In this document: one piece after another, positions 5,758 to 56,982 of the stretch
Layout of the letters: every line of letters starts with the position of its first letter
Numbering within the stretch: the stretch's first letter is position 1
Assembly: GCA_021846505.1 (NCBI GenBank)
Contig: JAJZWV010000001.1
Location: 37,291 to 101,290, forward strand
DNA from: Bacillota bacterium
Lineage (GTDB): Bacteria > Bacillota > Sulfobacillia > Sulfobacillales > JAIMBI01
Reading direction: 5' to 3'
Length of the DNA: 64,000 bases
Notes under the pieces: model-generated
What the model saw: the letters and a program-made list of their open reading frames with translations, nothing else
Database searches by the model: none
Told to the model about the DNA's origin: nothing
Position numbers and translations under genes: made by a program

Positions 5758-5812
5758 GCGCTCTAATAGGGCGCTATTCTCCTCGTCTTGGCCGATGTGT
5801 CACAGTCACTCG

Positions 5813-6517
5813 TCAATACGGGCGCCGGGCCATGGCCTGGGCCGCAAACTGCGCCAGCCCCTGCACGTCGAAAATCGGCACGGGCAGCACCTCCTGCACC
5901 GCATGCGCAAAGGGCGCCATGTTGGTGCACTCCAACACCAGCGCCGACAGGTGGGGCGCGCGCCCCGCGAGCTTTTCGGCCGCACGCACCACGTCGGCCT
6001 GCATCTCCTCGGGGTCAAACCGGTCGCGATTCTCGAAGTACACGCGGGCAAACATCGACGAGGGGTCGATGCCTTGAACCACCACGGGGTCCTCGCGCGA
6101 CCATCCCGCATCCCGCACGTAGCCGTCATCCAGCGCCGCCTCGTCGATTGTCAAAACCCCCACGGGGTCGCCGTAAAGCATGCGCAGCCACGGCACCTGC
6201 AGCAGCGACGACGACAGAAACGGCAGTGGGCCCTCGTCGCGCATCTCGCGATGCACCCGGGCGAAAAAGCCGCAGCCGCCGACTGCGACCCGTGCGCCGC
6301 GGCGCGCCAAGCGCTCTAAGCTTTCGCGAACCAGCGGGGCGATGCCGTCATCAAAATGATGGATCAAGCGGTCGGCGGTCAGGCCCGGCACCACCTCAAA
6401 CTGCACCGGCGTCTCATAGGTGCGAGCATGCCCCACGTCTCCGGGCAGGCGCGGGTAGCGCGCGTCCAGCAGCAGCACGCCCAGCGGCTGCCCGTAAAAT
6501 GCCTGGCCCCCAATCAC
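5813..6517 (-). CDS. Asp/Glu/hydantoin racemase-family protein
   Basis: 234 aa. Contains ..GGCGFFA.. and ..LVLECTNMAPFA.., the paired Cys-containing half-sites typical of this racemase/decarboxylase fold. Last gene of a minus-strand operon. Confidence 0.65.
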   Translation of the reverse strand: MIGGQAFYGQPLGVLLLDARYPRLPGDVGHARTYETPVQFEVVPGLTADRLIHHFDDGIAPLVRESLERLARRGARVAVGGCGFFARVHREMRDEGPLPFLSSSLLQVPWLRMLYGDPVGVLTIDEAALDDGYVRDAGWSREDPVVVQGIDPSSMFARVYFENRDRFDPEEMQADVVRAAEKLAGRAPHLSALVLECTNMAPFAHAVQEVLPVPIFDVQGLAQFAAQAMARRPY

Positions 6518-31754: not shown

Positions 31755-32183
31755 CCCGTGCTGTCGCTCTCCGCGGGGCGCGCTGCACCCCATAAAATCC
31801 CCGGCCTATGAACAAGAGAGTTGTACCAGTTTGTAGCAGGAACACCCGCCGACACTGAGAAACACCTCCCCCGGGATTGCCCATACCGAATGAGGTGGTA
31901 GCCGTGCGCCAGATGGCTCAGGTTGTGACTAAGATATTCCAGATCCCCGCTGGGTCAAGCGTCTTGTCGGCCCGACCGCACGGCGGGGGTTCGGGACCAC
32001 CGCGCGGTGGCGCTCTGGTGGATCGAGTGGGCGGAAAACAGCCACACCTGGGAAAATCATTTGCTTGAAAACACAGTTTGTGGTACCGCTTGCCGTAGAA
32101 TGGGATCCACCAGGTTCGCGCGGTATCCCGCGTACCAAAGATGTCCCGCCACTAACACGCGCCGGTGCAAGGGTGACAGCACG

Positions 32184-41700: not shown

Positions 41701-44700
41701 GCATTGAAGCCCAACCCCACGTATATCTATCGCCTGACCGTCAGCGCATTTCCGCGGCCGTGAGGCCGCGGCTGCATTGAAGCAGTATCGCGCCGATTAC
41801 CCAGAGGAAGTCGAAGGATAATTTCCGCGGCCGTGAGGCCGCGGCTGCAATGAAGCCCCAGGTTGATGTCGCCGGTTTTGCCGCCGAATTTGAGCACATT
41901 TCCGCGGCCGTGAGGCCGCGGCTGCATTGAAGCTGCATCGCGCGGACTACGAGCCGCTAGCGCCGGAATTTCCGCGGCCGTGAGGCCGCGGCTGCATTGA
42001 AGCGTATGATCTGCTTCGTGGTCTGCACAACCCACGCTAGATTTCCGCGGCCGTGAGGCCGCGGCTGCATTGAAGCCGGGTGGCGCGGGTGCGGGCCTGG
42101 CGACCGATGAGGTATTTCCGCGGCCGTGAGGCCGCGGCTGCATTGAAGCCAACATACGACTTACCACTACCCCAACCACCCACCATATTTCCGCGGCCGT
42201 GAGGCCGCGGCTGCATTGAAGCCTCATGCGCCACCCGCTCCACCTGCACACCCATCATATTTCCGCGGCCGTGAGGCCGCGGCTGCATTGAAGCACCACC
42301 GGGGGCTATCACATCGACGTGATGTCCCACATTTCCGCGGCCGTGAGGCCGCGGCTGCATTGAAGCTTGGCGGTCGTCCCGCTCGCGGCCGCCGCCCCGC
42401 TCGCCATTTCCGCGGCCGTGAGGCCGCGGCTGCATTGAAGCGGCGGATGGGGAAGACGCGGCGCGGCTGTACGAGGATTTCCGCGGCCGTGAGGCCGCGG
42501 CTGCATTGAAGCGCTGGCCGCGCAGCGCGTGCCCATCGGCGTCTACGCGATTTCCGCGGCCGTGAGGCCGCGGCTGCATTGAAGCTGCTGATCGTCGGTG
42601 CGCTGCACGCTCTTGCGGAGCGATTTCCGCGGCCGTGAGGCCGCGGCTGCACTGAAGCGGGCCGTTCCAGTCCGTGGCTGCGGCTCGCATATCCGCATTT
42701 CCGCGGCCGTGAGGCCGCGGCTGCATTGAAGCTGAATGCCGGCAGCTACACGTGGAACGAGTTCTAATTTCCGCGGCCGTGAGGCCGCGGCTGCATTGAA
42801 GCACTTGCAGTTGGCCGACGCCGAGGCCGAAGTTGTCGGTGTATTTCCGCGGCCGTGAGGCCGCGGCTGCATTGAAGCGGCGGGTGGTCGGTGCGTGTGG
42901 GCGTCCGGGGGGCGTATTTCCGCGGCCGTGAGGCCGCGGCTGCATTGAAGCAGCGAGCGCGGGAGACTCCGCGAAAGCCTCTGCCGGATTTCCGCGGCCG
43001 TGAGGCCGCGGCTGCATTGAAGCAAGGAGCCCCCGGTGACGCGCCCCACCTACGCCGCCGATTTCCGCGGCCGTGAGGCCGCGGCTGCATTGAAGCCGCA
43101 TGGGCGGGCACCCGGAGCACGGTGGGGACGCATTTCCGCGGCCGTGAGGCCGCGGCTGCATTGAAGCCCGGGCGGCCCGGCTCGCTGTTCCAAGACGCGC
43201 AACTCGATTTCCGCGGCCGTGAGGCCGCGGCTGCATTGAAGCATGAAGGAGGGTCGGCAACGGGCTTCGCCCCGTGGCTTATTTCCGCGGCCGTGAGGCC
43301 GCGGCTGCATTGAAGCGCAGGTGCTGTACCTGTGGGGCATCGACCCCATGGCGAATTTCCGCGGCCGTGAGGCCGCGGCTGCATTGAAGCCAACACGGCG
43401 TCATGGTCATTGGGCGGAAAGGGGTTGGCGATTTCCGCGGCCGTGAGGCCGCGGCTGCATTGAAGCATCATCGCCACCACCGGCGCCGGCAGCGCGTCAA
43501 TCTATTTCCGCGGCCGTGAGGCCGCGGCTGCATTGAAGCTTTTTCCGCACGTATGAAGTTTGCGGAAAAGAAGAAATTTCCGCGGCCGTGAGGCCGCGGC
43601 TGCATTGAAGCTTCTTGTCGCGGCGCGGCATGGATGGTCATATTGCCATATTTCCGCGGCCGTGGGGCCGCGGCTGCATTGAAGCCGCGTGTTTCCCCGC
43701 GATCGGGCGCGCACCTGGGAATTTCCGCGGCCGTGAGGCCGCGGCTGCATTGAAGCTCGCATCACCCCGCCCCGGGCACCGAGCCTGCGTGGCTATTTCC
43801 GCGGCCGTGAGGCCGCGGCTGCATTGAAGCTGGCGGGAAGTACGAGCTAGCGACAGCCGCCCCTCCATTTCCGCGGCCGTGAGGCCGCGGCTGCATTGAA
43901 GCGGATTCGCGAGGCATGCTTTGGATCCGCGTCGACCCATTTCCGCGGCCGTGAGGCCGCGGCTGCATTGAAGCACCGTCAGGCCGTTCACCACGTTCGA
44001 ATGCGCCAAGTAATTTCCGCGGCCGTGAGGCCGCGGCTGCATTGAAGCATGATGATGCGCCGGTGCTTGGCTACACGTACGACACGTATTTCCGCGGCCG
44101 TGAGGCCGCGGCTGCATTGAAGCGGGCGAGCGGGCCATGAGCAGGACGATGACCAGCAATACCAATTTCCGCGGCCGTGAGGCCGCGGCTGCATTGAAGC
44201 GCTGGCTATCTTCCGCGACTCTGCCATTGCTGACGCTAATTTCCGCGGCCGTGAGGCCGCGGCTGCATTGAAGTCGTCCGGGTAGCATGGCGAAGACGAA
44301 CGAGTCTCAGATTTCCGCGGCCGTGAGGCCGCGGCTGCATTGAAGCTTGTATACACATGGCGGACAAGCGATAGGTAGTGCTATTTCCGCGGCCGTGAGG
44401 CCGCGGCTGCATTGAAGCTGAGAGGGCAGTCTCCCGAAATGCGGTGATGTTGTATTCCCGCGGCCGTGAGGCCGCGGCTGCATTGAAGCGATCACGGCGC
44501 CATCCTGCCGCATGTGCCGGTTTTGATTTCCGCGGCCGTGAGGCCGCGGCTGCATTGAAGCAGCTCCTTGGCGGTGGCTCCCTCTGGCGCCACCAGGGAT
44601 TTCCGCGGCCGTGAGGCCGCGGCTGCATTGAAGCGGGTAAACGCCTGCGACGTGCCCCAGCCGCTTTCGAGGATTTCCGCGGCCGTGAGGCCGCGGCTGC

Positions 44701-45432
44701 ATTGAAGCGCGATGGGTGACGTGTCCGAATGGGCACCAGTATTACGCCATTTCCGCGGCCGTGAGGCCGCGGCTGCATTGAAGCTAGAAGCGGCGAACGG
44801 GGATCGGCCATGTGTTCATGATTTCCGCGGCCGTGAGGCCGCGGCTGCATTGAAGCCAAGCTGTTGGCTACACCGCTGACGCGGACGTCTTCTGATTTCC
44901 GCGGCCGTGAGGCCGCGGCTGCATTGAAGCGAGTCAGCATACAGGCACCCGGACCCGGGTGCAATATTTCCGCGGCCGTGAGGCCGCGGCTGCATTGAAG
45001 CATAGCCATCCGCGGTGACATCGGTCTCCGGCACGAGATATTTCCGCGGCCGTGAGGCCGCGGCTGCATTGAAGCACCGCCCGGCGCGCCTGCAACTCAT
45101 GCGCCACCCGCATTTCCGCGGCCGTGAGGCCGCGGCTGCATTGAAGCGGCAAGGCGCAGAAGACGGGAGAGCTGGACGCCATATTTCCGCGGCCGTGAGG
45201 CCGCGGCTGCATTGAAGCGGACCAACAAGCATCACGCGAGGGCGGCCTGCGGCATCATTTCCGCGGCCGTGAGGCCGCGGCTGCATTGAAGCGGGGCTGG
45301 TACGCCGGCGACCTGGGAGTGACCCCGGCCGGCCATTTCCGCGGCCGTGAGGCCGCGGCTGCATTGAAGCTTGTGGCCCTTGGGCCGGCGGTTGCGCACG
45401 CGATCAATTTCCGCGGCCGTGAGGCCGCGGCT
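35749..45432 (+). CRISPR. CRISPR array: 132 full 36-nt repeats plus a 26-nt truncated terminal repeat, 132 spacers of 35-40 nt
   Basis: Repeat ATTTCCGCGGCCGTGAGGCCGCGGCTGCATTGAAGC, with an 8-bp stem CCGCGGCC/GGCCGCGG and loop GTGA. Counted by hand line by line (uncertainty about +/-2). Plus-strand polarity is inferred from three things: hairpin followed by the ATTGAAGC 8-nt tag, cas2 and leader on the left, and all variant repeats in the right-hand 60%. Confidence 0.97.
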
Positions 45433-45721: not shown

Positions 45722-45862
45722 GTCGGTAGATGCCCAATGCCAAGCTGTCGCGCCCGGCTGCGTCTTTGGCCACGCCATCCAACAGGGCATGGGCGTCCAC
45801 CAACACCGCGGTGAGCGGCGTGCTGTACTGTGCATACAAGACGAGCGCCAGGGTTTTTTCGC
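45722..45862 (-). pseudogene. cas10: second cas10/cmr2-like fragment on the opposite strand
   Basis: The minus strand reads ..KTLALVLYAQYSTPLTAVLVDAHALLDGVAKDAAGRDSLALGIYRQGA. This resembles the Cas10 segment that normally follows GGDD (TxSxG..H.k.PL...L..A..LL..AK..GRd.la). Weaker call. Confidence 0.4.
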
Positions 45863-45959
45863 TCGACGGGGTCCCCAGCAATCCTACAACATAGGCAATA
45901 CGTGGGCAACACATGCACTCCAAATGCCTCCGTCCTGGACCTTGCGAGCGCGGGAACCT

Positions 45960-46215
45960 GGCGCAAAGCCGTAGCCACCGCCGCGGGGGCGTGGACGGCG
46001 CGCCCCCGCGCCGCCGAATACTGGGCCCGTGAACACACGGGGACCCTGCGGGGGCACTCGTACCGGCTTGTCGTCTACCGCACCTCGAGCCTCGACCAGC
46101 GGAACGCGCACCATTTCGACCGGGAGCTGACGCGGGTCCGCGCCACGGCCGATCTGGCCGGCCAGGCGTTCACGTGTGCCGCGGATGCGGAGGCCGCCAG
46201 CCGGGCCACCCTGCG
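45960..46215 (+). mobile_element. IS4/IS1634-family-like transposase fragment
   Basis: ..GHSYRLVVYRTSSLDQRNAHHFDRELTRVRATADLAGQAFTCAADAEAAS.. resembles the conserved central block of IS1634-type transposases. No start, no DDE region, no ends. Confidence 0.4.
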
Positions 46216-46299
46216 GGGGTCACCGGCTCCAGCGTCACGCGATAGCCCAGCGCCTTCAGGCGGTGCGGGACCCGCCGGACGACCGCGGCCCACGCAGAC

Positions 46300-46465
46300 C
46301 ACCACCAGGCTGACGGTGTGGGCGGAATGGGAGCAAGGCAAGTACCCCACGGGGATCAAAATCACGGCGAAGGACATCACGGCCCTCCATCTCGTGGCGG
46401 ATCCCTTTCAAGGCCAATGGAATTACACGATTTCTCCCCAAGATGACTCAGTTAAAAAAGGGTGA
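46300..46465 (+). mobile_element. ISAzo13-family-like transposase C-terminal fragment
   Basis: ..LTVWAEWEQGKYPTGIKITAKDITALHLVADPFQGQWNYTISP.. matches the extreme C-terminus of ISAzo13-type transposases (..YP.GikvS..em..l.l....FHGeWNYTI.P). Only about 50 aa are present. Confidence 0.45.
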
Positions 46466-46511: not shown

Positions 46512-47495
46512 CTACCCGCCTCTAAGTTGAGAAGCCACCTCGTCATGCTCCTCTACACCGGAGGACACAGTGGCCGGTACGGGCGGGGTGAACACCACGA
46601 ACTTCCCCGCGGTGCGCCGGGTGGAGCGAAACAGCTCCCGCACGCCCCGCGCTTGCAGCTGCGCCACATTGCGCTCGCCAACTTCACCTGCCAGCTCTGC
46701 CGCCGCCATGCCCATCAAGGACCGCACCGCATCGGCAGACAGCGGGGCCTCCCAGATGGGCCATGTAAAGTGCGTCTCGCGCTTCACCCGGCGAAATCCC
46801 GTGGTGGCGATGCCTCGCCCCACCGGGGCCGTGGGCAGGAGGCGCAGAGCCTCCACAGCCAGTCGGTTAGCGCCCCGCACCGTGCGACCGGGATCATTCG
46901 AGGGATTTTTCCACCGGAGGGCATAGCGGCGGTCGTCGCGCGCATCCCAACGCATGCTGGGCAACTCATCAGTGTACGCCCACGGCTCAAACAGGGCATG
47001 CTCCAAATCCCGCGCCGTGGTCAGCTCGGCCAGCTTGCGCATTGACTCCAAAAAGTGCTGATTTCCCGCACCGCTCATGGTGCGAAAGCTGGTGTCGCGA
47101 AGCAGGCCCTTCTTGTCCACGACGACGTCACACCCAAAGGCCGCCAGAAAATCGGCGTGGGAGCGCTCTGAAAGGGTGGCGGCCCTGGCCGCCTGCAGAG
47201 CCTGGTAGCGAAATTGCTCCCCCGACACCGCAAGATCCTTCGCGAATCGCACCGCCGGGTTCTCGGCCAGCGACTTCAAGCGCTCGGCCAGCCATTCGGG
47301 CAGACTATTGCGCTCCACCCCATCCGGCAACCCAGCTATGAACGCTGTCCACTGCCCACCCACACGGAGCCACCCCAGCCGCGGTGCATCATCGCGGGAA
47401 GGGTCGGACAGCGCCACCAGCGTCCCCAGGGCGGCGAGGAAGCCCGGCATCGACTCTCCGTGCAAACCTTCTAGTACTAATGGGTGCTGCCTCAT
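46512..47495 (-). CDS. type I-G large-subunit candidate (Cas8u/Cas8g-like; Csb3/Csx17-related)
   Basis: The start MRQHPLVLEGLHGESMPGFLAALGTLVAL overlaps the cas3 stop (ATGA). The position (last gene of the effector operon) and the N-terminal xLxGxxxxxxxxFLAALG pattern resemble Cas8u-type proteins. At 327 aa it is shorter than Csx17. Confidence 0.5.
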   Translation of the reverse strand: MRQHPLVLEGLHGESMPGFLAALGTLVALSDPSRDDAPRLGWLRVGGQWTAFIAGLPDGVERNSLPEWLAERLKSLAENPAVRFAKDLAVSGEQFRYQALQAARAATLSERSHADFLAAFGCDVVVDKKGLLRDTSFRTMSGAGNQHFLESMRKLAELTTARDLEHALFEPWAYTDELPSMRWDARDDRRYALRWKNPSNDPGRTVRGANRLAVEALRLLPTAPVGRGIATTGFRRVKRETHFTWPIWEAPLSADAVRSLMGMAAAELAGEVGERNVAQLQARGVRELFRSTRRTAGKFVVFTPPVPATVSSGVEEHDEVASQLRGG

Positions 47496-50400
47496 GCCCC
47501 CCGCCCCCTTTTTCCACGGGTGGATCCTGCCTGCTCTTCTTCGCTCTGCCGATGGTCCGCCAGCCGCAAGATGGCCTCCAGCCACGGCAACCCCCACCAC
47601 CCATAGCGGCGCGCCAGCCGCCAGAACCGCTCTTCCACCCCAGATCCCAGCTGCTCCAGCCCCGTTGCCGACGACACCGTGACCGCCGCACCCGCCAGTG
47701 GCACCAACACCTCTACCGGCTCCGTGTCCTCCACCACTGGGGCAAAGGGACGACCTCGCCCGTGATGGGTCGCCACCAGATATAAAACCAAGTCTTTCAG
47801 CTCACGGGTATCTGGCATCTCCTCGGGGCCTGCCGATTCCAGCATCCTCACCGAGAGCAACTCGTGTCGGCCCCCCCGCGGGTACCCCGACTGCTTAAGC
47901 GCTTCGCGATACGCTTTAGGGGAGAGAGGAGTCCCACGGGACTTAGCGACCAACTCCGGCCATGACCAGCGGCCCCCGCCGGTCAGCACATTTTGAAAAC
48001 GAGGGTCCGCCTTGCCCAAATCATGCAGGCCGCCGGCAGCCGCCACCGCCTCCACCATCGGCTCCGGCAGGCCACACTGCTCAGCGTACTTGCGCGCTCG
48101 ACGTGCCACCCCGTCCAGGTGCTGCCCCAGGGTTACGACCCGGCTGCCAGACGTGGACGTGTAGTCTTCGTCGGTAAAGGTATCAAGTGACGCAAAGGGC
48201 GTAGGAGCTTCCACTCGATGCCTGCCTCGCACGATGAGGCCGACCCCCAGCGGGTGTGGGTCGATGCACTGCTCCAAGTTCTCTCGCAAGAGGGCAACCG
48301 AGAGGTCGCGCAGCCACTTGGGGGCAATTTCGTCTTGGGAAACCGCTTGCAGCGCATCTCGCACGTCGCCTACCAGTCCGTCAGGGTCATCCTCAAACGA
48401 CCGCCCGCCGGTTTCTGCCAGCGTCAGCAGCGCGGCGCGGCTTGGGGTGGGGGGCAGTTGGCCCACCACTGCGGGATGGAGTCGCATGACCGGCAGGCCT
48501 CGCGTCTCAAAATTTGCGCGGTCTCCCCAGTCTAGGCAAGGCGGGCCCGCGCGCCGTGCCAAGTCGCCCAGCACGGTGGACCGCTTAGACTCGTTTGCCG
48601 CAGCGTTGAGAACCAGCACGTCCCCAGGGCGCAGCCTCCCACCATCTTGGATGGCCTGAGCATCATCCCGGCCTCTCCACCGAATCACTGACAAGCTAGA
48701 TTCTTCGCTCTCGCGGCGGCCGCGGGCAGCGTGGCGCTTGGCGGCGGAGTCCTCTAATTCATCCGGTGCCACACTTTCCAGATCACCGCTGTCATCCTCC
48801 ATATTGGCACCCGACAAAAAGTCCCGCATGACATGGATGGGAACTGGCAGGCACTCTGCGATAGCGGGTGGCGCCCACGCCAGCGCGTCCAGCGTGGCCG
48901 GCACAATCTTGCCCGCCTCATCCCGCTCAAAGTCCGCCCGCCAGCACACCAGCACGTCAGGCGACCCCGCTTCAGGTCCGTGGAGAAACACCGCAGGATC
49001 TGGGGAAGGCCACGGGATAGGGTCGGTCTGGGCCCATAAGTCGATGTGCGCTGGCAGCATCACGGGCGCGTGGCGCACCGGCGCGAACAGCTCCGCTGCA
49101 TTTTCGGTTTCGGACAGCTGCTCCGCCAAGCCCCCGACGCTCATGTCCACCGTTTGGTCGGGTCGCTCGTGGGCGCGAAGCCACTGCCAGGTGCGCGCGA
49201 GTGCCGTCCCATAAATCGGGTCGCCCGCGGGGTCATCCAGTTTGAGGTCTCGCTCCAGCACCACGATGGCTTGGCTGGCAATGGGTCGCCCCATCCGATT
49301 GAGTCGCCCGAAGCGCTGCTGCAGTGCGTCCAGCGACGCGCACTCGGTCACGAGGTAGTCAAAGTCCAGATCCGCCCCCACTTCCAGGGTTTGGGTCGCC
49401 ACCACAAACAGCGGCGCCTTCCGCGCGCCGTCCCGCGCGCCACTAGCCACCGAGGCAAGATCGCGATCCACGACATCGCCCTTGTCGACGGGGCGCATGC
49501 GTCCTGTCAGCAGGACCGTGTCTAGGTGAGCCTTCTGCAGCAATGCCGCCACCTCGCGCGCCGTCTGCACCCGGTTGCAAAACACCACGGTGGATATCGG
49601 GCCGTCAGCGCCCAGATGGCTCAGTTGGCGCGCGGAGGCTGCGAGCTCCTCGGCTACTCCCAGTCGCCCCGCGGAGCGGGCCACAGCTAACGTGGCCGGC
49701 TTCGCGGCCCAGCGCCGTCGTCCCAGAGGATGCTCCCGGTCGTCGCCTTGGCCAGAGGTATCCCGAAAGACGTCCTGGAATCCCGCCGGCGGCGTCGCGG
49801 ACATCACCACCGCATGAAACGGTGGGGGCAGCGGCTCCTTGGCAAACGTCCGATACCGCCCGACGGCGCGCAACGTTTCCATAAACGGCACGGCGCAATG
49901 GGCTTCATCCAGCAGCACCAGGCTGTCATTGGCGACCAGCCCCGCATAAATGGGAAAGCTGTAGGGCCGCCGCCCATAGGCCCGAAACAGGAGGCGGGAG
50001 CCCAGCTGGTCTACGGTGGTCGCTACCACGGTAGGCTGCACGGGGGACCGGGCCCAAGCCTCCGAGCGGTAAATCCCCCCGCGGAGCTCGTACGCCATGA
50101 GGGGCACTTCTCCACCCAAGGCCATCAGGCGCTCGGCCACTTGCCGCAGAGTCGGATCGCCGCCGTCCAGCGCTTCGTAAAGCTTTTGGGCGATTTTCTG
50201 AGCACGGCTGTACGCCGCGTCGACGATGAGTCGCCGGTCGACCGCGAAAAACACGCGGCGCGGCATGCGGCCCCGCTCGGGGTGCATCGCCAGCGCAAAC
50301 ACGGCCACATCCAAGCAGGCCGTCTTGCCCGCCGCGGTAGGCAGGGCCAACACTTCCGGCCACGGGTCGGCAGACGTCATCACCCGCGCGGCCAGCGAAC

Positions 50401-50497
50401 GCTGCCATTCGAATGCTGGATACCCCCACAGCGCGTGGAAGAACCGATCGAACTGCTCTCCGGCACTCCCTGCGCTGCTCTCCCAATCCCTATCCAT
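47492..50497 (-). CDS. cas3: type I-G Cas3 helicase-nuclease (C-terminal HD domain)
   Basis: 1001 aa. Helicase motifs ..LALPTAAGKTAC.. and ..LVLLDEAHCAVPF.. (DEAH). C-terminal HD nuclease ..GGLHDLGKADPRFQ...LVATHHGRGRP. HD at the C-terminus is the I-G arrangement. Confidence 0.9.
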   Translation of the reverse strand: MDRDWESSAGSAGEQFDRFFHALWGYPAFEWQRSLAARVMTSADPWPEVLALPTAAGKTACLDVAVFALAMHPERGRMPRRVFFAVDRRLIVDAAYSRAQKIAQKLYEALDGGDPTLRQVAERLMALGGEVPLMAYELRGGIYRSEAWARSPVQPTVVATTVDQLGSRLLFRAYGRRPYSFPIYAGLVANDSLVLLDEAHCAVPFMETLRAVGRYRTFAKEPLPPPFHAVVMSATPPAGFQDVFRDTSGQGDDREHPLGRRRWAAKPATLAVARSAGRLGVAEELAASARQLSHLGADGPISTVVFCNRVQTAREVAALLQKAHLDTVLLTGRMRPVDKGDVVDRDLASVASGARDGARKAPLFVVATQTLEVGADLDFDYLVTECASLDALQQRFGRLNRMGRPIASQAIVVLERDLKLDDPAGDPIYGTALARTWQWLRAHERPDQTVDMSVGGLAEQLSETENAAELFAPVRHAPVMLPAHIDLWAQTDPIPWPSPDPAVFLHGPEAGSPDVLVCWRADFERDEAGKIVPATLDALAWAPPAIAECLPVPIHVMRDFLSGANMEDDSGDLESVAPDELEDSAAKRHAARGRRESEESSLSVIRWRGRDDAQAIQDGGRLRPGDVLVLNAAANESKRSTVLGDLARRAGPPCLDWGDRANFETRGLPVMRLHPAVVGQLPPTPSRAALLTLAETGGRSFEDDPDGLVGDVRDALQAVSQDEIAPKWLRDLSVALLRENLEQCIDPHPLGVGLIVRGRHRVEAPTPFASLDTFTDEDYTSTSGSRVVTLGQHLDGVARRARKYAEQCGLPEPMVEAVAAAGGLHDLGKADPRFQNVLTGGGRWSWPELVAKSRGTPLSPKAYREALKQSGYPRGGRHELLSVRMLESAGPEEMPDTRELKDLVLYLVATHHGRGRPFAPVVEDTEPVEVLVPLAGAAVTVSSATGLEQLGSGVEERFWRLARRYGWWGLPWLEAILRLADHRQSEEEQAGSTRGKRGRGA

Positions 50498-50518
50498 GGC
50501 TTGTCCCTCGCTTCATGC

Positions 50519-52057
50519 TCATTGGGGACGGCACAGACCGTAGCCGCGATACCGGCCCGCTCCCAAAATCATCGGTCCGGCCACCGTCTCGGGAAATTCC
50601 AGGCGGGCATGCAGGTGCAGCCGTGCGGTGCCATCCGGGCGCCGAAGGGGGGGAAATTCCTCCGCGCGCGGCGCCCCCTGGGCAAATGGCGCCCGCGACA
50701 GCTCCACGGCTTTCGGCCGCGGCAACCCGATGTGCTCGCAAGCCTTCGCGGCCGCCTCGGTCAGCACGCTCCAGCGGTTTCGCCCGTGGGCGTGGCGATC
50801 CATCACGATGGGCGTCACCGAGACCCACGTGGAGCTCGGCCGAATCCACGTTTGCGGTGCCAGCGTCATGGGGAGCACTTCGCGCTCGTCCAGCTGGGCT
50901 GTGGATTCGAACCAATCCCGGTGAGCCAGCAGCAGTTGCCGCGGCGCGCCAAGCTCGTCGCGAAGCCATCCCTGCAGGAAGGTGGCGGCCGCGCGGCCGT
51001 CGACCCCCCTCGGCAGGGCCAGTCCGACGCCCATGAGGCGCCCATCACCGTGGGCGTGCCCCACGTTCACCAGCGGCACCAGCGATACGTGTGGAGCGCG
51101 AGACGGTCCGCCATCCGGGGTGAGCCCAGAGGCCCACTCCGGCGCATCGGGGTGCGCGGCCATCATGGAGTGGCGCAGCGCCTCCACCACCGCCAGCGTC
51201 ATCGTGGCCGGCAGGTTTCCCGTGAGCCGCAGCACCTGCACGCGGGGATCAAATTCTCCCCGCACTTCGACCTCGGAGGAGGTCCGCGGCCCCGGCCGCC
51301 GATACCCCTGCCAGCGGCTGTTGCGAGGCCGCAAGCGGTCCACCAGCCCATCTAGGTATCGGGCGCGGTCCAATTTCCCCAAAGTCATGGCATGCCGCAC
51401 ATGGGGAGCGGGATCGGAAGCGGCCAGATACGAAAGGCGTCCGTCATACGGCACCCGCATCCGCAGGGTGGCATCCAGCCCATCATCCGGCACCCACAGG
51501 TGCCGCCGGGGCCCCAGCACCGGTGCGTCCGCATCGACCCACATCTGGACGAGCGACGCGGAGTGGCCAACGTGCGTAACTTTGCGGCACAGGCTGGCCA
51601 ACCCAGCGTGCAGGCTGGGAGGCAGCGCCCCAGTCTCTTCCCACACTAGGTGCACCACCGGATCCTCCGGCACCGCGACCGGGAAGCTGCGTGCCTGCCG
51701 CTTGCGGTGGGCGGGCAGGACCGTCAGTCCTTGGTCCAGCAACTTTTGAGGACTGGTGGTGTCCTTAAGCTGACCCACCTTTACGTCGTTCACGGGGACA
51801 AACGACACCGGGGGCCCGTCGCCTCCCACAGCGACCCTCGGGTGGCTGGCAGACGCATAGACCAATGGCGCCGGCTGGCGCTCCAGCCAGCGCAGGGCCT
51901 CGGCCTCCTCGTCCGGACCCGCCGTCTCGAAGTACGCGGCCGCCAGGGCCATGAACACGCGATCAGGATGGGGCGGCCACTCGGCCCGCGACTTGGCGGC
52001 ACCGTCCGCCGCCGCCAGCGACCAGCCGTTTAGGTATTCAACGGCCAAGCTGATCAT
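50519..52057 (-). CDS. csb2: type I-G Csb2 (Cas5/Cas6-fusion family), paralog 2
   Basis: MISLAVEYLNGWSLAAADGAAKSRAEWPPHPDRVFMALAAAY has the same N-terminal architecture as the gene at 32184 but is clearly diverged. 512 aa, following csb1. Confidence 0.85.
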   Translation of the reverse strand: MISLAVEYLNGWSLAAADGAAKSRAEWPPHPDRVFMALAAAYFETAGPDEEAEALRWLERQPAPLVYASASHPRVAVGGDGPPVSFVPVNDVKVGQLKDTTSPQKLLDQGLTVLPAHRKRQARSFPVAVPEDPVVHLVWEETGALPPSLHAGLASLCRKVTHVGHSASLVQMWVDADAPVLGPRRHLWVPDDGLDATLRMRVPYDGRLSYLAASDPAPHVRHAMTLGKLDRARYLDGLVDRLRPRNSRWQGYRRPGPRTSSEVEVRGEFDPRVQVLRLTGNLPATMTLAVVEALRHSMMAAHPDAPEWASGLTPDGGPSRAPHVSLVPLVNVGHAHGDGRLMGVGLALPRGVDGRAAATFLQGWLRDELGAPRQLLLAHRDWFESTAQLDEREVLPMTLAPQTWIRPSSTWVSVTPIVMDRHAHGRNRWSVLTEAAAKACEHIGLPRPKAVELSRAPFAQGAPRAEEFPPLRRPDGTARLHLHARLEFPETVAGPMILGAGRYRGYGLCRPQ

Positions 52058-53313
52058 CAGTCAACGCCCTCAGCCATCACCAAAGCCTGGCTGCGCTCCA
52101 ATAGCGTCATTAGGTCCGCACTAGGGGTGAGGTCCACCTCCCCTTTCCAGGTGAGGCCCACACGCTCTGCGGCCTGGACGGCGGCGTGGACCATCGCAAT
52201 GGCGTCGTCGCCGCAAAGCTCATAGTGCATGCTAGGCTTGCCGGGCGTGAGCACTTCCCACACAAAATCGCCTTCAGGCACCAGGTGGCACCGCGAGCGC
52301 AAGTCCGCCCCTTCCTCCCGGGCCAGCACCGCCCCGCATAACGCCAGCGCCGCCAGCACTGTCCTGGCGGCCCGGTCCACTTCCACCTGAGATTCACGCT
52401 GGCCCGGCAGCGGGAAGCGCAGCCGACGGAGTGCCGGAAGCGACAGGACGGTGGTTTGTCTCGCCTCGCGCATCGTGATGCCTCCGGCACTCTCCGTAAT
52501 GGTCGGGGTGACGTTGCCGTGATTCACGACGCTGGGGCGGCCCTCATCTTGCTCCTTCTTTTCATCCCACACCACGGGTTCGCCCTTGCCAGTTAGTTTA
52601 GCCAGGATGGGGCGGCCGTCTTTCTTCTGTGCCTGCTCCCGGTCAATGCTCCAAGATCCATCCGGCCGGCGAAAAAGTGGACCTGCCTTGCGCTGAATCT
52701 GCAGGGGGTCCATCCGGCTGGCCGTTTTGGCGCCAGCGACGGCTTGCACCGCCACGATTTCAGACACTAAGGCGCGCTGGAACTTGGCCCCCAGCCCGCC
52801 GCGGGGACCGGTGGAATCCCAAATGCCAAACACGAGCGCGCCGGGGCACATCTGATACAGACCCGTGGCGTGGTGGAGATCCGCGTCATTCAGCAGAGAA
52901 CCCATCGAGGACTGTCGAAACGGTTTTCCTTCCAACAGGCTGTCGCGGAAAATCGCATCGGCCGCGCGGTGAGGAGCCTCCCAGCTGGTGATAACCAAAG
53001 GCTTTCGCAGCTCGCGGCTTTCAAAGGCGACCGACAGCGTGGGCAACCTAAGCCGGCCTGCTCGGTGGGCCTCCAGCAGTGCCAGCTCAATCCGATTCGC
53101 CTGCGACGCCACCGAATCCAGCAGAATGCAATCCACGGGATCCTCTTGTCCATTGATGATTCGCTTTTCCACCGCATACTTCGCGCCCTCGTAGGTGGGC
53201 GGAAACACCTTGTCGCCCGCGCCGCCCGCTGGCTGGTAGTGCGTCACGCACCGCAGTGCCGACGCATGGCTGTCCACGGTCCCCTGCAATTCTTGGAACG
53301 TCAATTTCGCCAT
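52057..53313 (-). CDS. csb1: type I-G Csb1 (Cas7 backbone subunit)
   Basis: MAKLTFQELQGTVDSHASALRCVTHYQPAGGAGDKVFPPTYEG.. is the Csb1/GSU0053-type N-terminus. 418 aa. First gene of the effector operon. RBS AGAGGGTG. Confidence 0.85.
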   Translation of the reverse strand: MAKLTFQELQGTVDSHASALRCVTHYQPAGGAGDKVFPPTYEGAKYAVEKRIINGQEDPVDCILLDSVASQANRIELALLEAHRAGRLRLPTLSVAFESRELRKPLVITSWEAPHRAADAIFRDSLLEGKPFRQSSMGSLLNDADLHHATGLYQMCPGALVFGIWDSTGPRGGLGAKFQRALVSEIVAVQAVAGAKTASRMDPLQIQRKAGPLFRRPDGSWSIDREQAQKKDGRPILAKLTGKGEPVVWDEKKEQDEGRPSVVNHGNVTPTITESAGGITMREARQTTVLSLPALRRLRFPLPGQRESQVEVDRAARTVLAALALCGAVLAREEGADLRSRCHLVPEGDFVWEVLTPGKPSMHYELCGDDAIAMVHAAVQAAERVGLTWKGEVDLTPSADLMTLLERSQALVMAEGVD

Positions 53314-53383
53314 GATTCACCCTCTTCTCTGCGCGGTCTGCCGCTGATTGGTGCTGATGCCATGATTCAGAGCGTTCGCTGCC

Positions 53384-53412
53384 ATCCTAGCATTTCACTG
53401 GTGGGTTTGCCA
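53384..53412 (-). promoter_or_regulatory. candidate promoter P2 for csb1-csb2-cas3-cas8
   Basis: The minus strand reads TGGCAA, 17 nt, TGC-TAGGAT (extended -10), about 70 nt upstream of the csb1 ATG. Confidence 0.4.
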
Positions 53413-53434
53413 GGATGTGCATTAGACCTAAAGA

Positions 53435-53455
53435 GGGGCCCCGGGGGCGGGCCCC
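53435..53455 (-). terminator. GC hairpin closing the crRNA-like unit (degenerate 3' repeat surrogate or terminator)
   Basis: The minus strand reads AATT GGGGCCC GCCCCCG GGGCCCC TCTTT: a 7-bp G/C stem, 7-nt loop and short T-rich tail. It starts about 40 nt after the half-repeat, where the next repeat hairpin would be expected. Only about 35% identical to the true repeat. Confidence 0.4.
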
Positions 53456-53461
53456 CAATTC

Positions 53462-53513
53462 GACAAGGGAGACTTTCGTCCTCCTGACGCGCATCTAGCT
53501 TCAATGCAGCCGC
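53462..53513 (-). ncRNA. crRNA-like element: orphan 3' half-repeat (16 nt) plus spacer-like sequence
   Basis: Minus strand 53513-53498 is GCGGCTGCATTGAAGC, a perfect copy of repeat positions 21-36 including the 8-nt tag. It is followed by TAGATGCGCGTCAGGAGGACGAAAGTCTCCCTTGTC. No expression data. Confidence 0.5.
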
Positions 53514-53566
53514 CTGCTACAGCTAGCCCAGCGGGCGACCGGCAAATAGTCGCCCGCCGGAACCAG

Positions 53567-53749
53567 CTACAGGGGCGGTAAGAAGGGTCGCTTGATGGGC
53601 CAGGAGGATGACGCATGGACAGAAAACTCTAACTGAGTCAACGTTTGCGACTGCCGGGACGCGAACACAACGCGGCCGCCCGCCGCAACCATACGTACCT
53701 CGCTGCTGGCCTTCTGTTCGAAAATCACCACCCGAACCTCGTCGACCAT
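53567..53749 (-). CDS. hypothetical 60-aa ORF behind promoter P1 (possibly a cas10 5' remnant)
   Basis: ATG preceded by AGGAG at 10 nt. MVDEVRVVIFEQKASSEVRMVAAGGRVVFASRQ... GC3 about 73%. No family recognised. See findings for the in-frame relation to the cas10 fragment. Confidence 0.3.
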   Translation of the reverse strand: MVDEVRVVIFEQKASSEVRMVAAGGRVVFASRQSQTLTQLEFSVHASSSWPIKRPFLPPL

Positions 53750-53757
53750 ACCACGAT

Positions 53758-53776
53758 TTCTCCTGACTCGTATCTA
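53758..53776 (-). promoter_or_regulatory. partial protospacer for the crRNA-like element (candidate Cascade operator)
   Basis: Minus strand TAGATACGAGTCAGGAGAA versus spacer-like TAGATGCGCGTCAGGAGGA gives 16/19 identity. Mismatches are at positions 6, 9 and 18. 5' flank is CTA. It covers about +8 to +26 of the P1 transcript, including the SD. Confidence 0.45.
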
Positions 53777-53790
53777 TAGGAACCAGGATT

Positions 53791-53819
53791 GTTCTACCAC
53801 CGGCTGCGTTCGATGTCAA
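53791..53819 (-). promoter_or_regulatory. strong candidate promoter P1
   Basis: The minus strand reads TTGACA (53819-53814), a 17-nt spacer, then TAGAAC (53796-53791). Consensus -35 and 4/6 at -10. Divergent from the SNF2 gene. Confidence 0.5.
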
Positions 53820-53928
53820 ACATATTGTGAGCATCTATCTTCTCCGGGCTGTCCCACGCGGATCGTGTGTGCGGCCTTACTACTACGCGCATGGAGGAGT
53901 CCCCTTCCCCGACCTCGAAGTGGCTGTC

Positions 53929-56900
53929 ATGAACACATTGCACGCGGCGGTGGATGAGGTAGGACTGGCTCTGTGGGCGGAAGCGCCTGGCGCTGGACGG
54001 CGCCCGTCGCGCGCGGCGATTCCTTCTCTGCCCTTTGCCTCTGGCCCCGATAAGCTCCGTGAGCTGGTCCAGGAGCTTTGGCCGTTTTGGGATGCGGTGG
54101 ACGTGCGGCGGCAAGTTTTGTGGGTGCCCTCAGGCGATGCTGGGCCGACCCCTCCCGATGATGCGCCAGGGGCCGACCTCGCTTCGCGGGCCATTCGGCC
54201 CTTTCGCGTGGCCGCGGCGTCCGTGCCCTCCACTTGGTGGCCTATGCTGTTTGGCGGCCAGACTAGGGACGGCGGGGCTCGGCACTTAGGCGGAGGGGTG
54301 TGGGCCGACCCCGTCTGGGACGTGTGGAGCGCGCTCTTGGCGCTGGCGGAAAGCCTCGTGGTGCGGCATCAGTACTGGCCGTCCACCCGCCGAGTTGGCC
54401 CAGAGCTTTACGCCCACTGGACGCCGGACTGGGCGCCGCGCGACCGCGAGCGCGCGGCGAGCCTGGCCCGCCGCCTGCCGGGCGCAGCCCGCGCCTTGAC
54501 CCGCGATGCCACCGGGGCGCCCGCCCGGGATCCCGCGCTGGTCGCCGAGTGGTTCGTGGCAGCGGCCGTGGATCGCCTGGTGCGCGACAGCAGCCCGCCG
54601 CTGACGCTTGGGGCCAGCATACACGACCGCTGGTGTCAGGCGCTGGTGGCGGACGACGGCCGCCTGGGTGGATCGCCGGCCGAGTTGGCAGGGCTGGAGA
54701 CCTCAGTCGCGCAGTGGGCGCGCCCGCTCGTTGCCTTGGCCGCCCTGCCGTTTCGGCTGGTGTTTCGGGTGGTAGAGCCCGACCCCGAAGACGACCAAGA
54801 GCGGTGGCGCATCGACTTTCGGGCGGTGTCACTGCGCGACCCCAGCCTGTCCGCCGGGCTTTCTGCCCTGTGGGACGACTTCACGGCCCAGCATCGCGGT
54901 CTCGGTGATCCCTGGGACACGGTCGGGCCAGATCAGGTGCTGCTGGCGCTGGGCCAGGCCGCGGCGGTGTCGCCGTCCGTGCGCGAAGCGCTGGCTGGCC
55001 CCGCTCCGAGCCACCTCGCCACCGACCTCGCCGGCGCCTATCGGTTTCTCACGGAAGACGCGCCACTCTTAGAGCAGGCAGGCTTTGGCCTCGAGCTCCC
55101 AGGCTGGTGGCACGGGGCCGCATCGGGGGTGAAAACCCGGGCGCACGTCGAGGCGCCCATGGCAGTTCCCGGCCGCTTCAACCTGGACGCCATTATCAGC
55201 GTCAACTGGCAGGCAGTGCTGGGCGACGAGGTGCTCACGCCGGAAGAGCTTGAGCGCCTCGCCACCTCCAAGACGCCTCTGGTCCAAATTCGGGGCGCCT
55301 GGGTGCATGTCCGCGCCGAGGACGCGCTGCGCATTCTGCGGCGGGTCCAGCACCAAAGCGAGATGCGGGCGCGCGACGCCATGCGCCTGGCCATGGGTGC
55401 CACCCTGGGGCCCGACGCCGACGACACCCTTGCCGGCGCCACCCTCACCGGCTGGCTGAAGGAGCTTATGACGGCGCTACAGGGCGAGGGCGCCGCCGCG
55501 CGCGCCGCCGCCGCGCCGCCACAGGCATTTGTAGGCTCACTCCGCCCCTACCAGGCGCGCGGCTTGGCGTGGCTCACGAACCTGGCGTCGTGGGGGCTCG
55601 GCGGCCTTTTGGCCGACGACATGGGCCTTGGCAAGACGGTCCAGACCCTGGCCCTCATCGAGGCGCTCGCGGAGCACGACGCGGAACCGCGCCCCGTCCT
55701 GCTGGTGGCGCCGCCCTCCATCTTGGGCAACTGGGAGGCCGAAGCGCGCCGCTTCACCCCATCGCTCCCGGTGGCGGTGCACCACGGGTCCGACCGGGCG
55801 GCGGGCGAGGAGCTTTTGGCGCTGGCGCGTCGCACCGGGTTGGTGCTGACGTCCTACGGCACCATGCGTCGCGATGCGGCACCACTGGCCACGGTGCCCT
55901 GGCGCGCCGTCATCGCCGACGAGGCCCAAGCAGTCAAAAACTTTGCCACCCGCACCTTCCGTGCGCTGGCCAGCATCCCCGCCGACTTTCGCGTGGCCTT
56001 GACGGGCACGCCCGTGGAAAATCACGTGGGGGACCTCTACTCCCTCATCGACCTGGTGAATCCCGGGTGGCTGGGAGCCCCGGCGCAGTTTCGCCGGCAG
56101 TTCCTGCAGCCCATTCACCGCGAGCACCGGGAGGAGCCCGCCCAGCGGCTGCGCGACTTGACGGCGCCCTTCATCCTGCGGCGCACCAAAACGGACCCCG
56201 CCATTGCGCCCGATCTGCCGGACAAGATTGAGATGGTGCAGTTTTGCCAGCTGACCACCGAGCAGGCGGCCCTGTACCGCGCGGTGGTGGCGGAGCTGGA
56301 AGAGCGGCTATACCAGTCCGAGGGCATGGAGCGCCGCGGCGTGATTCTCACCACGCTGCTGCGCTTAAAGCAGCTGGCCAACCACCCGGCTCACTTTCTC
56401 GCGGATGGATCCCCGCTGCCGGGGCGCTCCGGCAAGCTTGAGCGCCTCGAGAGCCTGGTGGACGAAATCTTGGACAACGGCGAGCGCGCCCTGATATTCA
56501 GCCAGTTCCGCGAGATGGGGGCGCTGCTGCAGCACGACCTGCAGGAGCGATTCGGGCGCAGCGTGCTGTTTCTGCACGGCGGCGTGCCGCGCACCGAGCG
56601 GGACCGCCAGGTGGCGCAGTTTCAGCGCGCCGAAGGCGGGCCCCCGCTCTTTATCCTGTCGCTGAACGCCGGCGGCACGGGACTCAACCTCACCCGCGCC
56701 AACCACGTGCTGCACTACGACCGCTGGTGGAACCCCGCAGTCGAGAACCAGGCCACAGACAGGGCGTTTCGCATCGGGCAGGCGAAAGCCGTGCGCGTGC
56801 ACAAGTTTGTTACCCGCGGCACGGTGGAGGAGCGCATCCATGAGCTCCTGGTGGAAAAGCAGGGGCTGGCGGACCGCTTCGTGGGCGGGGGCGGGGGCGG

Positions 56901-56982
56901 GGGCGAGCAGTGGCTGACCGAGTGGAGCAACAACGATGTCTTAGACTTGTTTCGCCTGCAGGAATCTCTGGTGGAGGTGTAG
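53929..56982 (+). CDS. SNF2-family DEAD/DEAH helicase with long N-terminal SNF2-associated region
   Basis: Helicase core ..LRPYQARGLAWL..LLADDMGLGKTVQ..VIADEAQAVKN..LTGTPVENHVGDLYSL.. and C-terminal ..LNAGGTGLNLTRANHVLHYDRWWNPAVENQATDRAFRIGQ. The start is uncertain (ATG 53929 or GTG 53827). Confidence 0.9.
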   Translation: MNTLHAAVDEVGLALWAEAPGAGRRPSRAAIPSLPFASGPDKLRELVQELWPFWDAVDVRRQVLWVPSGDAGPTPPDDAPGADLASRAIRPFRVAAASVPSTWWPMLFGGQTRDGGARHLGGGVWADPVWDVWSALLALAESLVVRHQYWPSTRRVGPELYAHWTPDWAPRDRERAASLARRLPGAARALTRDATGAPARDPALVAEWFVAAAVDRLVRDSSPPLTLGASIHDRWCQALVADDGRLGGSPAELAGLETSVAQWARPLVALAALPFRLVFRVVEPDPEDDQERWRIDFRAVSLRDPSLSAGLSALWDDFTAQHRGLGDPWDTVGPDQVLLALGQAAAVSPSVREALAGPAPSHLATDLAGAYRFLTEDAPLLEQAGFGLELPGWWHGAASGVKTRAHVEAPMAVPGRFNLDAIISVNWQAVLGDEVLTPEELERLATSKTPLVQIRGAWVHVRAEDALRILRRVQHQSEMRARDAMRLAMGATLGPDADDTLAGATLTGWLKELMTALQGEGAAARAAAAPPQAFVGSLRPYQARGLAWLTNLASWGLGGLLADDMGLGKTVQTLALIEALAEHDAEPRPVLLVAPPSILGNWEAEARRFTPSLPVAVHHGSDRAAGEELLALARRTGLVLTSYGTMRRDAAPLATVPWRAVIADEAQAVKNFATRTFRALASIPADFRVALTGTPVENHVGDLYSLIDLVNPGWLGAPAQFRRQFLQPIHREHREEPAQRLRDLTAPFILRRTKTDPAIAPDLPDKIEMVQFCQLTTEQAALYRAVVAELEERLYQSEGMERRGVILTTLLRLKQLANHPAHFLADGSPLPGRSGKLERLESLVDEILDNGERALIFSQFREMGALLQHDLQERFGRSVLFLHGGVPRTERDRQVAQFQRAEGGPPLFILSLNAGGTGLNLTRANHVLHYDRWWNPAVENQATDRAFRIGQAKAVRVHKFVTRGTVEERIHELLVEKQGLADRFVGGGGGGGEQWLTEWSNNDVLDLFRLQESLVEV

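Follow-up and report, generated by a model that had tools for sequence, protein, structure and literature searches.

The intergenic region upstream of a type I-G effector operon was analysed in a 64,000-nucleotide (nt) stretch of DNA from a Bacillota bacterium (the window). Read from its sequence, segment 53513-53434 of this region is a degenerate one-spacer mini-CRISPR element, made up of pseudo-repeat 1, a 37-nt pseudo-spacer that serves as the candidate guide, and pseudo-repeat 2. The repeat 3' end, the pseudo-spacer and the hairpin of this element sit 121-200 nt upstream of csb1, and the start of the pseudo-spacer matches a site directly behind a promoter, termed P1, that faces csb1 and lies 463 nt upstream of it. 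The features of the locus are listed here in order of transcription from P1, followed by the effector operon and the array (open reading frame is shortened to ORF and protospacer-adjacent motif to PAM).

53819-53814, minus strand: the -35 hexamer TTGACA of P1, by direct reading; the same in four strain-level copies.
53799-53791, minus strand: the extended -10 element TGgTAGAAC of P1, 17 nt past the -35 hexamer, by direct reading.
53779-53777, minus strand: CTA at the PAM position, by direct reading; the sister loci have TTG, TTG and CTG.
53776-53758, minus strand: a protospacer-like target, TAGATACGAGTCAGGAGAA, overlapping the Shine-Dalgarno sequence AGGAGA of the small ORF.
53749-53567, minus strand: a 60-codon ORF with its ATG at 53749, between target and guide, called as a gene in public assemblies.
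53569-53521, minus strand: a long stem-loop (fold prediction) that begins at the stop codon of the 60-codon ORF.
53513-53498, minus strand: pseudo-repeat 1, GCGGCTGCATTGAAGC, identical to the final 16 nt of the CRISPR repeat.
53505-53498, minus strand: the 8-nt handle, ATTGAAGC, within pseudo-repeat 1.
53497-53461, minus strand: the pseudo-spacer, 37 nt, with guide positions 1-19 at 53497-53479.
53460-53434, minus strand: pseudo-repeat 2 (fold prediction), AATT and an 8-bp GC hairpin, then CUUUAGG.
53413-53384, minus strand: a putative proximal csb1 promoter, CTGGCA, 18 nt, TAGGAT, proposed from conservation, with no tool call.
46512-53313, minus strand: the type I-G effector operon, from Pfam and NCBIfam matches, comprising csb1 (53313-52057), csb2 (52057-50519), cas3g (50497-47492) and a Cas3-extension gene (47600-46512).
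35749-45370, plus strand: the CRISPR array, 132 repeats of ATTTCCGCGGCCGTGAGGCCGCGGCTGCATTGAAGC, from which the repeat fragment derives and which competes for Cascade.

The type I-G components found in the window are Csb1/Cas7g, Csb2 (a Cas5-Cas6 fusion), Cas3g and Cas4g/Cas1g, with matches of the cas proteins to the NCBIfam models TIGR02570, TIGR02165, TIGR02621 and NF049935. The presence of Csb1/Cas7g, Csb2 and Cas3g, with a Cas3-extension protein downstream, assigns the system to type I-G; in keeping with this membership, the array repeat terminates in ATTGAAGC. The array holds 131 spacers of 35-40 nt, and is preceded by a Csb2 paralogue and then Cas4g/Cas1g. In the characterised type I-G system the PAM is TTN, Cas3 is a stable and integral subunit of the complex, and Csb2 cleaves 4 nt 3' of the base of the repeat hairpin, which yields an 8-nt handle, and remains on the 3' hairpin (PMC9638904). 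The predicted fold of the true repeat in the window, an 8-bp hairpin followed by CUGC and then the 8-nt handle AUUGAAGC, agrees with this published processing. The window's own spacers gave no PAM, as a comparison of all 131 with a phage collection returned zero protospacer matches.

P1 combines its -35 hexamer with the -10 hexamer TAGAAC (53796-53791), and a TG one base upstream (53799-53798) makes this an extended -10 element. Two strain variants have TGcTAGTAC at this place, with the TG retained. P1 is missing from the output of the promoter scan because the scan needs a T at the last -10 base, where P1 has a C. The target lies just downstream of TTGACA-17-TAGAAC, starting about 14 nt after the -10 element, and the handle is a further 271 nt downstream. 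The 60-codon ORF between them has a GC content by codon position (0.59/0.44/0.74) that is coding-like. It matched zero Pfam or NCBIfam families, its homologues among 5.8 billion proteins amount to one strain variant, and the rare-codon run after the start codon that marks known CreT toxins is absent from it. The ORF is thus an orphan, for which a leader peptide, cargo or a toxin are all possible roles.

Within the 64 kb, and on both strands, the 16-nt fragment GCGGCTGCATTGAAGC occurs as a single copy outside the 132 array repeats, against a chance expectation of 0.18 per window even with two mismatches allowed. The guide start TAGATGCGCGTCAGGAGGA (53497-53479) has one other match at three or fewer mismatches, and this is the P1 site, which agrees at 16 of 19 positions with mismatches at 6, 9 and 18; the chance expectation for such a match is 0.01. 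If every third position is freed, guide and P1 site agree at 12 of 12 positions (chance 0.03), and no other site in the window comes within one mismatch of this 12-position pattern. Past position 19 guide and target are identical at 5 of 18 positions, and the effective target match comprises positions 1-17 (53776-53760). Two other readings were dismissed. The likeness is not a piece of a longer duplication, because similarity stops at position 19 and the flanks are unrelated, and an antisense-RNA mechanism is excluded by the orientation of the guide, which has the same sense as the P1 transcript.

An earlier reading of the letters alone (the sequence-only reading) had described a near-consensus P1 at 53819-53791, the 19-nt site with the Shine-Dalgarno sequence, the 60-codon ORF and the perfect, 16-nt repeat copy, and direct reading of the minus strand bears out each of these. 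Its GC hairpin is also present, with the ends moved from 53455-53435 to 53456-53434. The 16/19 agreement that it saw lost after position 19 stands as the single match in the window, its hand-made chance estimates were of the right order, and the longer ordinary duplication that it had named as a ground for abandoning the idea is not what the flanks show.

The GC hairpin at 53456-53434 has eight pairs and a 7-nt loop, and 41 nt separate the handle from its start. With the second pseudo-repeat taken to start 4 nt ahead of its hairpin, which is the arrangement of the true repeat, the pseudo-spacer is 37 nt long, which falls within the 35-40 nt range of the array spacers. This placement of the hairpin, exactly one spacer length from the handle, suggests that it is a decayed second repeat, and it is best read as one that has kept a Csb2-binding hairpin, lost the handle and become a weak terminator. 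The tail of the hairpin has four U in eight bases, and it was not called as a terminator by the scan. Other type I-G loci have recognisable second repeats with degenerate last four bases, for example ccccATTGAAcc and cctcTTTGtcc. An ordinary or orphan array would have two or more full repeats and strain-variable spacers; the element has one truncated repeat and a decayed hairpin. A scan of 53200-54000 against Rfam gave zero relevant matches, and neither the guide nor the repeat was found copied on the viral contigs searched for phage mimics.

Upstream of the handle, pseudo-repeat 1 retains eight repeat bases. In the window an alternative upstream arm (GUCGCC...GGCGGC) can rebuild a hairpin that closes 3-4 nt before the handle, and in the sister lineages described below the hairpins are cleaner, with the base exactly 4 nt before the handle. 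The long stem-loop at 53521-53569 is very stable (about 21 bp), lacks a following U-tract and stops 15 nt short of the handle. It is in competition with the substitute hairpin that pseudo-repeat 1 can form, and it may serve in RNA stability, in processing or in termination that needs no U-tract.

The nearest Csb1 relatives beyond the strain cluster are about 78% identical and come from three lineages (loci L009, L002 and L007). All three keep the handle, the pseudo-spacer and the hairpin at the same spot upstream of csb1. The block common to the window and these sisters consists of ccggcggccacATTGAAG together with the pseudo-spacer, the GC hairpin and TTTAATTTC, and the csb1 5' region is common to them as well; from the start of the upstream helicase gene to pseudo-repeat 1 the DNA is unalignable between lineages. 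In each lineage a site that matches the lineage's own guide is found 97-368 nt upstream of the handle. Across the four lineages, guide and target covary at positions 2, 4, 7, 11, 16 and 17 (six compensatory changes) and are invariant at six further positions, with zero violations at those of positions 1-17 that are not multiples of 3. Moreover, the guides of L009 and L002 show 0 differences in 19 nt and then 10 in 18, the conservation being confined to the first 19 nt. The whole module is unchanged in four strain-level copies from different samples, whose few differences are confined to the P1 -10 region and the 60-codon ORF, and an identical Csb1 is present in the metagenome-assembled genome GCA_021841015.1.

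These observations bear on the reading of the element as a non-functional relic, in which recombination or array decay left a decayed repeat-spacer unit whose 16/19 likeness to the P1 site is due to chance. Pseudo-repeat 1 is truncated, and standalone repeats are present in 46% of type I-G loci (Shmakov et al., 2023, PMC10120712), as a relic would lead one to expect. However, the chance expectation is 0.01-0.03 per window, the module is kept in place amid intergenic DNA that does not align, the guide-target pair has undergone six compensatory changes, and conservation is selective for the first 19 nt of the guide. A relic was already disfavoured and is considered very unlikely.

In each of the four lineages a small ORF comes after the target; it has a Shine-Dalgarno sequence, and its start codon lies 4-10 nt past the target. 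The ORF has 60 codons in the window and 15, 27 and 64 codons in the sister lineages, and neither length nor sequence is conserved. The short post-target ORFs of L009 and L002 have only the peptide NARAPP in common. The 18 nt that code for it, at 5691-5708 in L009 and 719-736 in L002, differ at exactly every sixth base, a pattern seen in two sequences, which are too few to judge; it could be synonymous change or something else.

More distant loci were fetched by Csb1 alignment, 80 from a genome collection (of more than 561 Csb1 relatives) and 80 from metagenomes. A match was scored where an ATTGAAR handle outside arrays was followed by 18 nt that matched a site no more than 800 nt away at 13 or more of 18 positions, unweighted. 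In the genome set 20 targets were flanked by TTN, compared with 0-5 for every other PAM class tested, and the independent metagenome set gave 15 compared with 0-9; permuted handles gave 0-2 matches. About 25 distant type I-G loci among those surveyed have analogous mini-arrays. Nearly all of the matches lie upstream of csb1, and the guide differs from locus to locus, each fitting the promoter region of its own locus. Of 30 protospacers, 27 are on the csb1-sense strand, and in both sets guide-target matching falls to random from about position 19.

Two layouts recur. In the first (e.g. L012, L059, L074 and L080), mini-array and csb1 run divergently, with the target in between. In the second, which is that of the window and also of L018, L042, L076, L108, L112, L117, L124 and L140, target, leader, mini-array and csb1 follow one another on one strand; here the distance from target start to handle is 81-271 nt, and csb1 begins 117-257 nt downstream of the handle. 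Many loci have, like the window, a consensus promoter (TTGACA-17-TAnnnT) that ends 1-25 nt upstream of the protospacer, and in two loci, L018 and L042, the protospacer reaches with its distal end into the -35 element.

The recurrence is also relevant to the possibility that the guide is functional and its output lies elsewhere, with self-regulation only or a target outside the window, and P1 merely the guide's own promoter. The target search covered 64 kb of the genome, and short seeds can hit other genomic targets, a caveat of Shmakov et al. (2023, PMC10120712). Nevertheless, the adjacent target covaries with the guide in every lineage, and in about 25 other loci the target is at a promoter upstream of csb1. 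An output elsewhere is therefore regarded as improbable.

The mismatches between guides and targets, read from the pairs in loci L012-L089 and L098-L146, are not evenly spread. Positions 6, 12 and 18 are mismatched in about 70% of cases in the genome and metagenome sets (about 71% in the genome set). In the genome set, which itself suggested a rule of every third position, positions 3, 9 and 15 are mismatched in 37% of cases versus 1.5% at the twelve remaining positions (p about 2e-12). The metagenome set gave a trend only (23-26% versus 10-12.5%, p = 0.05-0.15), and positions 10 and 14 were also mismatched there. The type I-G structure displays just the usual 5+1 periodicity, with bases 6, 12 and 18 flipped out by Cas7 (PMC9638904). 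In the window two of the three mismatches, 6 and 18, fall in the class that is free across all surveyed loci, as the sequence-only reading had assumed in treating them as neutral, and the third, at position 9, is consistent with the 3/9/15 pattern. A 3-nt periodicity has reportedly been described for DNA recognition by the Cascade of E. coli. The every-third-position rule is provisional; type I-G Cascade, with Cas3 preloaded, may read DNA as two paired bases and one free base, and regulators may thereby bind without cutting.

The same pattern speaks to a reading in which the two 19-mers are a duplicated operator for a regulatory protein and the repeat fragment is a coincidence. Two similar sites in direct orientation, separated by 270 nt within a regulatory region, would suit such an operator. 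Yet one copy always begins right after an ATTGAAG handle and the other is preceded by TTN or YTN, the sequences are wholly different between loci, and the differences between copies cluster at positions 6, 12 and 18, the bases that Cas7 flips (PMC9638904). A protein operator is accordingly judged extremely improbable.

What has been described so far supports the central proposal of the sequence-only reading, that the element is a CRISPR RNA (crRNA)-like guide of the CreA/CreR/CreTA class: the module is conserved, about 25 analogous loci exist, and the covariation of half-repeat and promoter-matching pseudo-spacer that it had suggested looking for in related type I-G loci was found at six positions with zero violations. 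The interpretation that we consider probable, with some reserve, is that a CreR/CreA-class guide steers type I-G Cascade to repress P1, from which the small ORF and the guide itself would be expressed and from which, through read-through, csb1-csb2-cas3 probably are as well.

The proposed mechanism extends from transcription and processing of the guide, through Cascade binding without cleavage, to read-through. P1 would transcribe the guide together with the 60-codon ORF, and Csb2 would cut before the ATTGAAGC handle and hold the 3' hairpin, which would replace the hairpin of the next repeat. Guide-loaded Cascade would recognise 53776-53760 beside CTA, directly downstream of the P1 -10 element and at about +8 to +24 of the transcript. 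Pairing with the template strand would be limited to guide positions 1-17, with 6, 12 and 18 free, and the R-loop would be unable to enter the remaining 20 nt, so that the resident subunit Cas3 would not be activated. With an R-loop that cannot extend and an inactive Cas3, the complex is proposed to work as a roadblock and promoter occluder, and RNA polymerase would be blocked at P1 by the bound Cascade.

Under this mechanism free Cascade would exert negative feedback on P1, which would open when Cascade is scarce, titrated by the crRNAs of the 131-spacer array, or inhibited. An open P1 would raise the guide and the small ORF, and read-through of the weak hairpin would lift csb1-csb2-cas3 above the basal level provided by the proximal promoter. 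A two-promoter design is favoured, with a weak constitutive promoter supplying basal Cascade and the strong, Cascade-repressed P1 supplying the boost.

The survey bears on whether a targeted promoter feeds the operon. In L018, L108 and L124 only about 45-50 nt lie between pseudo-repeat 2 and csb1, counted to its Shine-Dalgarno sequence in L018 and to its start codon in L108 and L124. This indicates that transcripts of the cas operon in these loci must start at the targeted promoter and pass through the mini-array. In L074, L079, L017 and L073 a small ORF after the target overlaps the csb1 start, and this overlap implies that the targeted promoter is the operon promoter. Overall, the targeted promoter is the sole candidate for the operon in L018, L108, L124, L074 and L079.

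Several observations weigh against the autoregulatory interpretation of the window. L009, L002 and L007 all have, after the guide, a hairpin that scores well as an intrinsic terminator, and a promoter-like element, (C/T)TGG(A/C)(A/G), 18 nt, TA(C/G)(C/G)AT, precedes csb1 in four lineages, the hexamers and the 18-nt spacing being conserved and the spacer sequence variable. The sister terminators and this conserved element mean that transcription of the cas operon may not come from P1; the regulated output would then be limited to the small ORF and the guide. Pseudo-repeat 1 is truncated to 16 nt, and its substitute hairpin faces the much stronger upstream stem-loop, which together make guide processing uncertain. 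The PAM of the window is CTA and differs from TTN; CTG in L009 and CTA in L079 suggest that C at -3 may be tolerated. Finally, among the scanned ORFs, which were part of those in the window, no match to the Cas8g/Csx17 large subunit was seen. Cas8g/Csx17 is the subunit thought to read the PAM.

One alternative is a CreTA-like addiction module. The P1 unit would end at the hairpin, the ORF or its RNA would be a toxin, and the guide with Cascade would be the antitoxin, silencing the promoter that they share; the cas operon would run on its own promoter, and loss or inhibition of Cascade, for instance by an anti-CRISPR, would free the toxin and lead to growth arrest. Several features fit this alternative: the target covers the Shine-Dalgarno region of the small ORF in four of four lineages, the ORF of the window has a coding-like GC profile, and the sister hairpins are good terminators with a conserved promoter-like element before csb1. 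The high diversity reported for CreT (PMC9458426) would fit unrelated ORFs of 60, 15, 27 and 64 codons. On the other hand, the window ORF is without a homologue outside the strain cluster and without a family match, it has no rare-codon run of the kind found in the known tRNA-sequestering (transfer RNA) CreT toxins, and the small ORF is not common to four closely related lineages. In L018, L076 and L112 the 81-85 nt from target start to handle leave no room for a toxin, and in other loci a small ORF is translationally coupled to csb1. The addiction module is possible and rather unlikely; the same holds, to a similar degree of doubt, for its one-promoter form, in which one promoter under Cascade repression would produce a rapidly evolving small toxin as well as its silencing guide. 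Cas autoregulation is favoured over a toxin guard. The Haloarcula CreA represses creT and cas8 alike, which makes the two models compatible.

Regulatory guides of this kind have precedents. CreR is the Cas-regulating RNA of types I-B, I-E and V-A, and its logic, a negative feedback on free effector, has been shown experimentally in other subtypes (Liu et al., bioRxiv 10.1101/2023.03.10.532045). The CreR elements and that of the window are alike in consisting of a degenerate mini-CRISPR beside effector genes and in the PAM-proximal partial match to a promoter. The role proposed for the window would share with CreR an effector that represses without cleavage, and a circuit that senses free effector and competes with crRNAs. 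Unlike CreR, the window has its guide on the same strand, inside the leader of the repressed unit, 271 nt past the target and behind a small ORF; the target lies just after the -10 element and not at the promoter nearest csb1; and of pseudo-repeat 2 a bare hairpin is left, a possible terminator. The type I-G effector also differs from the CreR effectors in that Cas3 is a resident subunit. Short complementarity between guide and promoter is used in type II systems as well, where the scaRNA (small CRISPR-associated RNA) or long tracrRNA (trans-activating CRISPR RNA) guides Cas9 to a promoter and represses it without cutting. These RNAs differ from the window's element in effector class, RNA architecture and PAM logic.

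In the CreTA/CreA module of Haloarcula hispanica type I-B (Li et al., 2021; PMC9458426), as in the window, pseudo-repeats flank a pseudo-spacer, both repeats being degenerate, and there is a partial match, with a PAM, to the promoter of an adjacent small gene, the module lying beside the Cascade genes. The window differs from CreTA in having no rare-codon tRNA trap, in a small ORF that is unconserved even among sisters, and in having candidate toxin and guide on one promoter, where CreTA has separate ones.

Autoregulatory mini-arrays have been described in types I-F1, I-E, I-D and I-B, with mismatches at positions 6 and 12 treated as neutral (Shmakov et al., 2023, PMC10120712). They resemble the window's element in that a standalone repeat unit is conserved in related loci, the seed lies beside the better-conserved repeat, and the target, in the cas promoter region, has a canonical PAM. 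In a table of the same study, type I-G has a row of 235 loci, of which 46% carry a standalone repeat and 4% a mini-array, and no targets are given. The 4% is probably an underestimate if second repeats are generally as decayed as that of the window: surveys that demand two recognisable repeats probably undercount such regulators, since the second one can be reduced to a mere hairpin.

For type I-U, the old name of I-G, creA-like elements were spotted by eye and are mentioned in a sentence with Fig. S7 of the CreR study (10.1101/2023.03.10.532045). This sentence and the table row are the only traces of type I-G found in the literature; neither an experiment nor a description of a target was found. 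The earlier statement that no description exists for type I-G was thus too strong as worded. The element of the window is a further member of the known CreR/CreTA/mini-array kind.

The genes under the targeted promoters vary. Proteins of 67-71 amino acids are encoded directly after the targeted promoter in L064 (5719-5922), L074 (5796-6005), L079 (5787-6002) and L017 (5792-5998). They come from four different phyla, have no Pfam or NCBIfam match, and their stop codon overlaps the csb1 start in three of the four loci; judged by sequence and position, the family seems to represent a hitherto undescribed gene at the head of the type I-G effector operon. Membership of the window ORF in this family was considered and dropped, since a profile of the L064, L074, L079 and L017 proteins missed the ORFs of the window and of L007. 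L073 and L080 encode a different small protein in this slot after the targeted promoter. In three further loci a gene for a sigma factor of the extracytoplasmic function (ECF) type lies between target and csb1: L078 (5335-5919), with a clear NCBIfam sigma-70/ECF match, L025 (5418-5885), with a weak one, and L034 (about 5344-5820), recognised by eye only. This suggests that in some loci a Cascade-repressed sigma factor is an intermediate regulator of the cas operon.

Upstream of the module, a gene for a SNF2-family helicase with DUF3670 (53929-56982, plus strand, in the window; 2339-5443 in L009) runs divergently in all four lineages. Its true start is MNTLHA, at about 53929, rather than the GTG at 53827, and in L009 a SWIM-domain gene (1489-2337) comes after the helicase. 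In the effector operon, cas3g is followed by a 362-residue protein of the Cas3-extension family (NF049934; 46512-47600, minus strand). The window order is csb1-csb2-cas3g-extension, and the csb1-csb2-cas3g order is also that of L074; in sister loci a DxTHG/TM1812-family gene follows the Cas3-extension position. The Csb2 of L074 (7230-9617) is 795 amino acids long and includes an internal segment, at about residues 337-408, that is weakly phosphoribosyltransferase-like.

The very large array (35749-45370, plus strand) is transcribed toward the end of the effector operon, so that array and operon converge, and an ISAzo13/DDE transposase fragment (45830-46465) lies between the array and the last effector gene. 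The Csb2 paralogue that precedes the array (32007-33596, plus strand; TIGR02165, 113 bits) is a second, divergent copy distinct from the csb2 of the effector operon, and it stands directly upstream of cas4g/cas1g (33597-35267). An ISL3 transposase is encoded at 27277-28470.

Among the type I subtypes, I-G has been studied least, and the element raises the question of how a Cascade that carries Cas3 could act as a repressor on the host chromosome without nicking it. The analysis contributes for this subtype the PAM, the extent of pairing, the fixed strand orientation and the two layouts, together with the decay of the second repeat to a plain hairpin and the variable genes under the targeted promoter. 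The window, its three sisters and the roughly 25 further loci constitute natural guide-target pairs that define the tolerance of the complex, namely a TTN/YTN PAM, pairing at positions 1-17, free sixth positions and a fixed strand orientation relative to the promoter. These rules are testable in the reconstituted Thioalkalivibrio system and would be useful for the design of guides for type I-G CRISPR interference. If the small ORF were a toxin, the finding would extend CreTA-type guards to another subtype, in a new circuit layout.

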